This document shows, piece after piece, positions 1 through 151 of a DNA stretch of 49,028 bases (position 1 is the stretch's first letter; the number at the start of each line of letters is the position of its first letter). The stretch is from Candidatus Tenderia sp. (GTDB lineage: Bacteria > Pseudomonadota > Gammaproteobacteria > Tenderiales > Tenderiaceae): NCBI GenBank assembly GCA_031416075.1, contig JANOSY010000074.1, positions 1-49,028 on the forward strand, in the 5' to 3' direction. The notes beneath the pieces are model-generated. The model was given only the letters and a program-made list of their open reading frames with translations, was not told the DNA's origin and did not search any database. A program made the position numbers and the translations under genes.

Positions 1-135
1 AGGCAAACCAAATATGGTGATTATTGGTGCGGTGATGCGTAAATTGATACATATAGTTTACGGTGTACTGAAATCCGGCAGACCTTTCGATCCCTCTTTG
101 TCAGAAAATCATGCTTGACAGGCAAGACGGTATCT
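1..135 (+). mobile_element. Right end of IS110-family element (IS621-like), inserted in an attC site
   Basis: Transposase stop overlaps a perfect TTGACA (115-120); end reads ACGGTATCT (127-135) with CT core at 134-135; attC sequence CAACTCTACGTTAGGC follows immediately. Confidence 0.8.
2..118 (+). CDS. IS110-family transposase/recombinase, C-terminal end (5' part outside window)
   Basis: Frame 2 reads [38 protein letters not shown], matching the typical IS110 C-terminal motif (K.KMV..GA.MRKL....YG.LK.G..FDP); not in the ORF track because it is truncated. Confidence 0.85.
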
Positions 136-151
136 CAACTCTACGTTAGGC
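134..151 (+). other. 3' half of an attC site (L' remnant, spacer, R' GTTAGGC) split by the IS110 insertion
   Basis: CTCAACTCTACGTTAGGC aligns with the 3' end of the intact attC (CTCAACTTTACGTTAGGT, 943-960) at 16/18 positions. Confidence 0.85.

Follow-up and report, generated by a model that had tools for sequence, protein, structure and literature searches.

What mobile element ends at the first letters of this stretch of DNA, and why does the 3' part of an integron recombination site begin exactly where it stops? The window, by which we mean the whole stretch of 49,028 nucleotides (nt) that was analyzed, is the start of contig C74 (JANOSY010000074.1) in the 95-contig, 3.49-Mb genome of Candidatus Tenderia sp. 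(GCA_031416075.1), and it opens on the cut right end of an insertion sequence (IS) joined to the 3' part of an attC site, the recombination site of integron gene cassettes. We conclude that the element is very probably a bridge-RNA-guided IS written against integron attC. A sequence-only reading of the window had proposed as much (an IS110/IS621-type element with a bridge RNA programmed against the attC of its host), and its interpretation is supported by the recombinase protein, the layout of the element, the insertion sites and the guides.

The frame that opens the window is the 3' end of a 326-amino-acid (aa) IS110-family recombinase, as had been claimed, and the letters that follow are those described in the sequence-only reading: the -35 hexamer TTGACA over the stop codon, then GGCAAG, ACGGTAT (127-133), CT (134-135), CAACTCTAC (136-144) and GTTAGGC (145-151), with the IS boundary placed where the flanks of different copies diverge. 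It had further been claimed that the CT is shared by the IS end and the target, and an intact attC of the same family, starting GCCTAAC (R'') at position 897 of the window, agrees: it reads ...GCAGCCC-CT-CAACTTTAC-GTTAGGT and continues after the CT as the junction does, bar one base. The CT core is single in the intact site and also ends both the left flank and the element, that is, it serves both IS ends and the target. The placement of the insertion in the L' box holds as well. Folded as DNA on either strand, the intact attC forms an R''/R' stem, a 5-nt unpaired spacer, a bulged L''/L' stem and a central hairpin (z about -2.0; 6 to 7 of 200 shuffles fold as well), in which CT 943-944 makes up the first two bases of L' (CTCAAC, 943-948), pairing with L'' GTT(C)GAG. 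The IS-attC junction at the window start is not a chance arrangement: a second copy in the host has it too, and related elements from other assemblies show it at 27 of 33 right junctions.

The complete element lies on contig C70, where a 255-nt non-coding left end precedes an intact 326-codon gene and 17 nt follow the stop codon; the DEDD IS110 open reading frame (ORF) and the non-coding left end that the earlier reading had expected upstream of the contig edge are both present there. The recombinase (P0001) matches the Pfam families DEDD_Tnp_IS110 (PF01548, 1.9e-26) and Transposase_20 (PF02371, 2.8e-28) and is similar to the IS621 transposase (PDB 8wt6, E 2.2e-76) over residues 8 to 320 and to the ISCro4 transposase (PDB 9t56, E 6.1e-76). 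The composite active site of IS621 consists of D11, E60, D102, D105 and S241 according to the accessible text of PMC11208158, and D12, E61, D103, D106 and S242 stand at a constant offset from these residues. No pair among the 25 longest of 36 inverted-repeat pairs in the element joins the two termini. A long non-coding region upstream of the gene and the absence of sub-terminal repeats are the marks of the IS110 type in the portions of PMC11187229 available to us, and because the element has the one and lacks the other we place it in the IS110 type and not in the IS1111 type; by layout and catalytic residues, as read from its sequence, it is an IS110-type element.

This placement bears directly on the nearest precedent, since the attC-targeting ISs in print belong to the IS1111 group (ISPa21, ISPst6, ISKpn4 and ISPa25; accessible text of PMC11187229), and the attC targeting discussed in the available parts of PMC11089894 and PMC11208160 likewise concerns IS1111. 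That the present element is simply one more member of that group is suggested by its Pfam assignment to the IS110 superfamily and by its site-specific insertion into attC, but the chance that it is one is close to nil: its long non-coding region lies upstream and not downstream of the gene, it has no sub-terminal inverted repeats, its protein resembles IS621, an IS110-type element, over the full length, its target guides come in the order bottom-strand match then top-strand match, the reverse of the ISKpn4 seekRNA, and it sits near the 3' end of attC in cassette sense, where IS1111-attC elements are described at the 5' end and antisense. The sequence-only reading had set the element apart from this group, and the upstream non-coding region, the lack of a terminal inverted-repeat pair, and the opposite attC end and orientation set it apart too, by layout and by published descriptions. 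A protein search of 72,556 plasmid records yielded distant relatives only (best 50.3% identity), and no named IS1111-attC element is among the 40 matches listed from a ranking capped at 5000 records.

A BLAST search of the host genome with the element returned three pieces, on C70, C74 and C26. Two of them have different right flanks, CT followed by CAACTTTACGTTAGCC and then a cassette on C70 and CT followed by CAACTCTACGTTAGGC in the window, so the host holds at least two copies, which are identical over their common 135 nt. The third piece, at the end of C26, is the first 135 nt of the IS left end, and the DNA before it (GCATAAC ATTGCGTTCGAGAGGGACGCGCCAAAAGCGGCGCGCCCCT, ending ...GCGCGCCCCT) is the 5' half of an attC, in which R'', L'' and the central hairpin are all present. 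An attC 5' half is what had been expected as the left flank, and this is true of the sole left junction found. In all three host junctions (two right, one left) the break in attC falls behind the CT with which the L' box starts, at a distance of 9 nt from R', the two IS-flanking halves sum to one attC like that at 897-959, and the IS gene runs in the same sense as the cassette ORFs.

Could these junctions have arisen by misassembly of a metagenome bin, or might the element be an immobile relic? The window begins at a contig edge of a fragmented genome whose runs are sediment metagenomes, one of at least two left junctions was found, and a perfect target stands vacant, all of which would suit such an account. 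We nevertheless regard it as very improbable: C70 runs without a break across an IS-attC junction, 27 of the 33 right junctions from other assemblies are of the same kind, the gene is intact, the host copies agree over all 135 shared nt, and in another genome (G017, below) four identical copies at four attC sites point to recent movement. The 20 public runs listed all consist of assembled contigs, and four of them (X1, X3, X6 and X19) were compared with C70:9500-11717. No circle joint (right end to left end) and no empty site appeared in the contigs of these four, in which uncovered parts are uninformative; contig word depth in X1 was 69 to 86 on the IS and 26 on its flank, a ratio that is not a copy number.

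The expectation that other copies would also lie in attC was borne out by both right junctions and the one left junction in the host and by four of four copies in G017, and it extends to relatives elsewhere. The loci scanned were 36 from one genome per species and 65 from metagenomes; those at 70 to 87% protein identity come from metagenome contigs and from metagenome-assembled genomes (MAGs) titled Gallionellaceae, Sideroxydans, Sulfurirhabdus, Nitrosomonadales, Burkholderiales and "beta proteobacterium," with one titled Gammaproteobacteria. Among the 33 related right junctions with at least 15 nt of flank, whose attC status was read by eye, an R'-type core follows in 27, mostly 9 to 10 nt on (6 nt in one), and two are ambiguous (L050 and L057). 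Related left flanks of at least 60 nt end in an attC 5' half in 22 cases and do not in 4. The orientation is fixed in every attC case, with the gene sense equal to the attC top strand and to that of the cassettes. Two sites are probably filed twice (L020/L093, which have one left flank, and L024/L100, which have one right flank, lack a guide and are outside the 23 copies compared below), which makes the 27 of 33 right junctions, and the 26 copies used for the left guide below, slight overcounts of independent sites.

In the long-read relative G017 the copies number exactly four, spread over two contigs and each in an attC site of its own. Their sequences agree at 100% along 1256 nt (for the fourth copy, along the 919 nt available), an identity that suggests recent movement of such elements. 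Two of its identical copies stand in direct orientation 1561 nt apart in one array (G017:C7:138001-142073; L004 2243-3498 and 5060-5978), and direct copies that bracket cassette DNA in this way could delete or co-mobilize cassettes. In a protein database search restricted to the best 120 of 7541 hits (8000 candidates scored, with the query as the first row), the 119 relatives among the matches listed are all 71 to 98% identical and nearly all metagenomic, and one is named by NCBI, as an "IS110 family transposase" from a Methylotenera MAG. Within the order of the host, the 255-nt left end was found in one of 17 genomes, that of the host itself; the 16 others are 60 to 100% complete.

If the element is RNA guided, its left end should encode the guides. 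An alignment of nine left ends (93% identical on average, with the variation in two short blocks) and the predicted fold of the host's own left end yield two stem-loops followed by a target domain and a donor domain, each with a left and a right candidate guide (Table 1; positions are numbered from the first base of the element). The left guides read as the top strand and the right guides complement it, and each of the four pairings includes the core. The right-end terminus, which is the same in nearly all related copies, is reproduced exactly in the left donor guide ACGGUAUCU, and the right donor guide AUUCACAAG fits CT+TGTAT, TGTAT being the first five bases of the left end, in a discontiguous nine-on-seven pairing as in IS621. 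Directly behind the right target guide stands AU, complementary to donor bases 7 and 6 as in the handshake of IS621, and GU follows the right donor guide. The two-domain structure was evaluated on 12 left ends from four clades, namely the present one, another from betaproteobacteria, and those of Enterobacteriaceae and Wolbachia: the paired share of cells is 84.8%, against 36 to 47% with slid partners, 16 of 27 pairs changed on both sides, against 2 to 6, and none of 500 shuffles matches the observed pairing or double-change values, in a comparison favored by the derivation of the structure from the same alignment.

Guide and flank agree strongly on the right side of the target. In the 23 copies for which both the guide and the right flank are available (L063, at 75% identity, is not among them), the right target guide pairs with the CT and the next 5 nt of flank at all seven positions in 20 copies, at six in 2 and at five in 1. 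Outside the core, 111 of 115 positions agree; when the flanks are shuffled among the copies the average is 82.8 and the highest value 102, with none of 200,000 shuffles reaching 111. The guides fall into seven classes, each with its own flank: AGCUAAG with CTTAGCT, AGUUGAG with CTCAACT, AGCCAAG with CTTGGCT, AGUUAAG with CTTAACT, AAGUGAG with CTCACTT, AAUUAAG with CTTAATT, and AAUUGAG with CTCAATT. With one representative per class, 34 of 35 positions agree, a value that 2 of 5040 permutations reach; this class-level figure is the fairer one because related copies are not independent. As far as a comparison of sequences can, the right-side covariation shows that the target sequence is read.

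The left side behaves differently, and here and elsewhere there are observations that weigh against our interpretation. The left target guide is nearly invariant (CGUGCCCCU); set against the flanks, it agrees at 140 of 182 non-core positions, which 11,182 of 100,000 shuffles reach, shows no covariation, and pairs at only six of nine positions in 7 of 26 copies. A one-base deletion in the host element, L007 and L053 places an A in the left guide where the core T needs a U. Four related copies lie outside any recognizable attC (L035, L048, L062 and L063), an Rfam search of the element gave no match at E up to 1, and the stability of the single-sequence fold is unremarkable (z = -1.04). In the host, the left junction of the window copy is absent from the assembly, cut off by the contig edge, and the C26 left flank could suit either right junction, the second left junction being missing from the assembly; a fully guide-matching attC on C58 is unoccupied; and no intact intI scores above the family cut-off anywhere in the genome, which is 99.98% complete.

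On the left side, the proximal GCCCC-CT is matched in most copies, and it is the distal three bases of the left guide that often are not; in the commonest left pair, a U opposite a top-strand C would meet the bottom strand in a G-U wobble. There are hints from two copies that the left guide and its target can change together: L052 carries the left guide GCAGCCCCU on the flank GCAGCCCCT (9/9), and L063 carries ..GCGCACCU on ..TCGCACCT, changed in step, with a right side of 7/7. The guide predictions of the sequence-only reading hold for the target CT+CAACT and the donor ACGGTATCT, both of which are matched by guides; the left target guide fits its flank mainly by way of GCCCC(T) and does not covary.

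These features raise the question of whether the preference for attC owes as much to DNA structure as to the guide, with guides that read only a short GCCCC-CT plus 5 nt and an additional requirement for the hairpin 5' of the cut, as reported for ISPpu10. The GC-rich central stem of attC does contain the left target, in its 3' arm, which puts a hairpin directly 5' of the insertion point; with the distal three left-guide positions often unpaired, some 11 to 12 bases would be specified; and an IS110 element needing both a bridge-RNA match and a target 5' stem-loop is described in the accessible part of bioRxiv 10.64898/2026.03.19.712850. A search of both strands of the host genome with the 14-mer that the two guides together specify, allowing no change in the core, gave 174 sites at 11/14 or better. 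Ten stand at 12/14, all unoccupied and mostly outside attC, which can be read in the same direction. The sole site at 13/14 speaks for the specificity of the guides: it is a vacant attC, on C58 (minus strand, around 47322-47383, about 200 nt or less from the contig end), with a wobble at the one position left over, and its 14-mer is the one that the occupied sites carry when rejoined. The intact attC of the window is empty too, and the weak left half of its 14-mer may account for that. Against a requirement for the hairpin stand copies without a recognizable attC that nevertheless match the target (on the right, seven of seven positions in L062 and L063 and five of seven in L048; in the fourth, L035, the left end is not assembled and no guide was compared), and so does the strong covariation on the right, which indicates that sequence is read. 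We hold structure gating to be unlikely and retain targeting of attC by bridge-RNA guides as the reading that best accommodates the data.

The proposed route of movement follows IS621, whose junction promoter is formed only in the circle according to the accessible text of PMC11208160 and PMC11208158. When the ends of the C70 copy are joined in silico, TTGACA is followed after a 17-nt spacer by TATCTT at left-end positions 3 to 8, just where the earlier reading had anticipated a -10 box, and both hexamers are kept in relatives; a simple scan of the integrated element found no sigma-70-like site and no intrinsic terminator. In this computed form, the promoter layout fits the circle-only model. 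The element would excise as a circle whose joined ends read ...ACGGTAT-CT-TGTATCTT..., and the reconstituted -35/TATCTT pair would drive a non-coding RNA of about 180 to 190 nt from the left end. The donor loop of this RNA would pair with the joined ends ACGGTAT-CT-TGTAT. In the target loop, CGUGCCCC(U/A), the left guide, would recognize the final part of the attC central stem, and AGUUGAG, the right guide, would recognize CT+CAACT, the L' box; the DEDD/Ser recombinase would then exchange strands at the shared CT, and the element would come to rest within the L' box at 9 nt from R', in cassette sense every time. The split attC would lose its hairpin, so that two neighboring cassettes would be fused as far as IntI is concerned. 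The sequences themselves show the anatomy, the insertion sites, the matching and covarying guides and flanks, and the identical copies in separate attC sites; RNA expression, the circle and the effect on cassette excision are inferred, as is the recombination chemistry, by homology with IS621, and immobilization of the upstream cassette is a reasonable expectation from attC folding. Read-through from the array could also express the sense-oriented IS.

How much such an effect would matter in this host depends on its integron, which is fragmented in the assembly: attC arrays are scattered over contigs C3, C26, C39, C58, C70, C74 and C93. At C26:1199-1315 lie the first 39 of 315 positions of intI (TIGR02249, E 2.9e-9), next to a stretch that resembles attI and to the first cassette, the one with the IS in its attC; the remnant is about 1 kb upstream of the IS left end and runs in the opposite direction. 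Because intI is reduced to this 39-codon remnant, there is little cassette mobility in the host for the proposed effect to alter. A candidate on C82 (L040 88-2064), a 246-aa tyrosine recombinase that was the best non-Xer match to the intI model, was rejected as an integron integrase; the two ORFs beside it (280 and 102 aa) look like an IS91-type transposase.

A bolder proposal is that the IS copies go beyond attC parasitism and move or reshuffle cassettes independently of IntI, and that bridge-RNA elements have repeatedly coevolved with attC families. Its starting points are the constant sense orientation, which would allow read-through expression of RNA and recombinase even while integrated, and the bracketing pair of copies in G017. 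In this scheme, a circle that spans one copy's left end, the cassettes and the right end of the next copy would be excised and could reinsert at any matching attC, even in genomes with a dead intI. We consider this a speculative and rather improbable extension.

Table 1. Coordinates of the element, its candidate guides and the attC features. Plain positions are those of the window, and "IS" positions are counted from the first base of the element.
Feature	Position	Strand	Remarks
IS right end, cut by contig start	1..135	+	135/135 nt identical to end of C70 copy
Recombinase gene 3' end, last 38 codons and stop	2..118	+	From ORF list
TTGACA, -35 hexamer	115..120	+	Overlaps TGA stop 116-118
Left donor ACGGTAT + CT core	127..135	+	Identical to candidate left donor guide, IS 143-151
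Right target CAACT	136..140	+	With CT, complements candidate right target guide AGUUGAG (IS 98-104), 7/7
Split attC 3' remnant	136..151	+	Rest of L' box (CAAC), 5-nt spacer, R' core GTTAGGC 145-151; by comparison with intact attC
Gene cassette 3' of IS	145..959	+	ORF 174-902; closes with intact attC
Intact attC, same family	897..959	+	R'' 897-903, L'' 909-915, central hairpin, L' 943-948, R' 953-959; by pattern and fold
Vacant potential target 14-mer in intact attC	936..949	+	11/14; right 7/7, left 4/7
Full element	C70:10459-11711	-	1253 bp counting one CT
Stem-loop 1	IS 15-30		Predicted fold
Stem-loop 2	IS 35-54		Predicted fold
Target domain outer stem	IS 55-71 with 106-120		Predicted fold
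Left target guide (candidate)	IS 73-81		CGUGCCCCA
Inner hairpin of target domain	IS 82-95		Predicted fold
Right target guide (candidate)	IS 98-104		AGUUGAG
Donor domain outer stem	From IS 137		Predicted fold
Left donor guide (candidate)	IS 143-151		ACGGUAUCU
Long inner stem-loop of donor domain	After IS 151		Predicted fold
Right donor guide (candidate)	IS 179-187		AUUCACAAG

The cassette that follows the IS in the window has an unusual cargo, a 242-aa homing-endonuclease-like protein of the GIY-YIG/NUMOD3 kind (NUMOD3, 4.6e-20; GIY-YIG, 1.9e-06). After the last cassette ORF, window positions 1101-1215 hold nested inverted repeats with the look of a hairpin or a miniature inverted-repeat transposable element: the outer arms (1101-1120 and 1196-1215) are 20 nt long and 100% complementary, and the inner arms (1127-1149 and 1174-1196) are 23 nt long and 91% complementary. 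Two tandem units of about 110 nt (1276-1491; blocks of 42, 35 and 22 nt, 82 to 98% alike) separate the cassette array from pilT (1547-2584, minus strand). On the attC of the C70 cassette (L001 9574-9721), contigs from four sediment or freshwater runs pile up with many different loose ends, to a summed word depth of up to about 10,700 against 26 on the adjacent cassette; from the loose ends and the deep pile-up we take this attC family to be common to very many cassettes there.

The clade described above is probably not alone in its choice of target. A second IS110-type clade, 45 to 48% identical in protein and of the same architecture (L010, L011, L021, L022, L028, L066-L078, L081, L087, L098, L101 and L107), has the guides GUGACGCCU and GGGUUAG and flanks that read ..GACGCCT before the element and AACCC.. 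after it. This flank is the R'' box (GCCT and AAC on the two sides), at the 5' end of attC, and a complete attC with an R'-type core 55 to 70 nt on was recognized by eye in 6 of 18 right flanks (L010, L073, L075, L078, L081 and L101); of the remainder, two are too short and the others have no clear attC. Targeting of attC by IS110-type elements is thus probably not confined to one clade. Within the library searched, we found no paper that ties bridge-RNA or IS110-type elements to attC, with the proviso that the supplementary target tables of PMC11208160 may list the clade without naming attC; bioRxiv 10.64898/2026.08.14.744561 makes no mention of integron, attC or cassette.

The element would be the third RNA-guided invader of attC, after the IS1111-attC elements and the group IIC-attC introns, and it is an IS621-like element that is abundant in environmental metagenomes, with almost none of its members named. 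By splitting the L' box, it should fuse neighboring cassettes and seed homologous repeats inside arrays. The seven right-guide variants form a natural reprogramming series, tracking the L' boxes of different attC families with the donor side held fixed, and offer ready-made, evolution-tested guide-target pairs in which the target is a structured recombination site.

Among known systems, the group IIC-attC introns share with the present element the use of RNA-DNA pairing to home into attC sites of cassette arrays (accessible text of PMC3001079), but they are reverse-transcriptase retroelements that sit near the attC 5' end on the antisense strand and are unrelated in sequence and mechanism. The IS1111-attC elements come closer: in the available portions of PMC11187229 they too have a DEDD transposase of the IS110 superfamily, are RNA guided, and insert in one orientation at one fixed point of attC. 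The same portions give them a seekRNA region downstream of the gene, sub-terminal inverted repeats of 11 to 13 bp and a top-strand match that comes first, the opposite of what we find, and PMC3001079, as far as its accessible text goes, places them close to the attC 5' end, running against the cassettes, whereas the present element lies in the 3' part and in sense. ISPpu10 of Pseudomonas putida, known to us from partial sources, has a bridge-RNA target that immediately follows, on the 3' side, a hairpin of the genomic DNA within an intergenic repeat, which is the likeness noted above; its target is that repeated intergenic element and not attC, and its RNA is said to be without a 5' stem-loop, against two predicted here.

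With IS621 (of Escherichia coli) and ISCro4, IS110-type bridge recombinases of solved structure, the element shares homology over the whole recombinase, the five catalytic residues, a CT core at both ends, a long non-coding left end and a very short right end with a -35 box. The shared features continue in the predicted RNA, where a target loop precedes a donor loop, the left guides (9 nt) read the bottom strand and the right guides the top strand, the right donor guide is discontiguous, and two positions serve the handshake. The differences are that the RNA is predicted to carry two 5' stem-loops before the target loop, that pairing by the right target guide extends to 7 nt, where wild-type IS621 has 4 nt in the accessible sources, and that the clade comes from uncultured freshwater and sediment bacteria labeled beta- or gammaproteobacteria. 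The target here is the L' box region of an integron attC. The mechanism itself is known from IS621; the novelty is the target, which widens a known kind of element.

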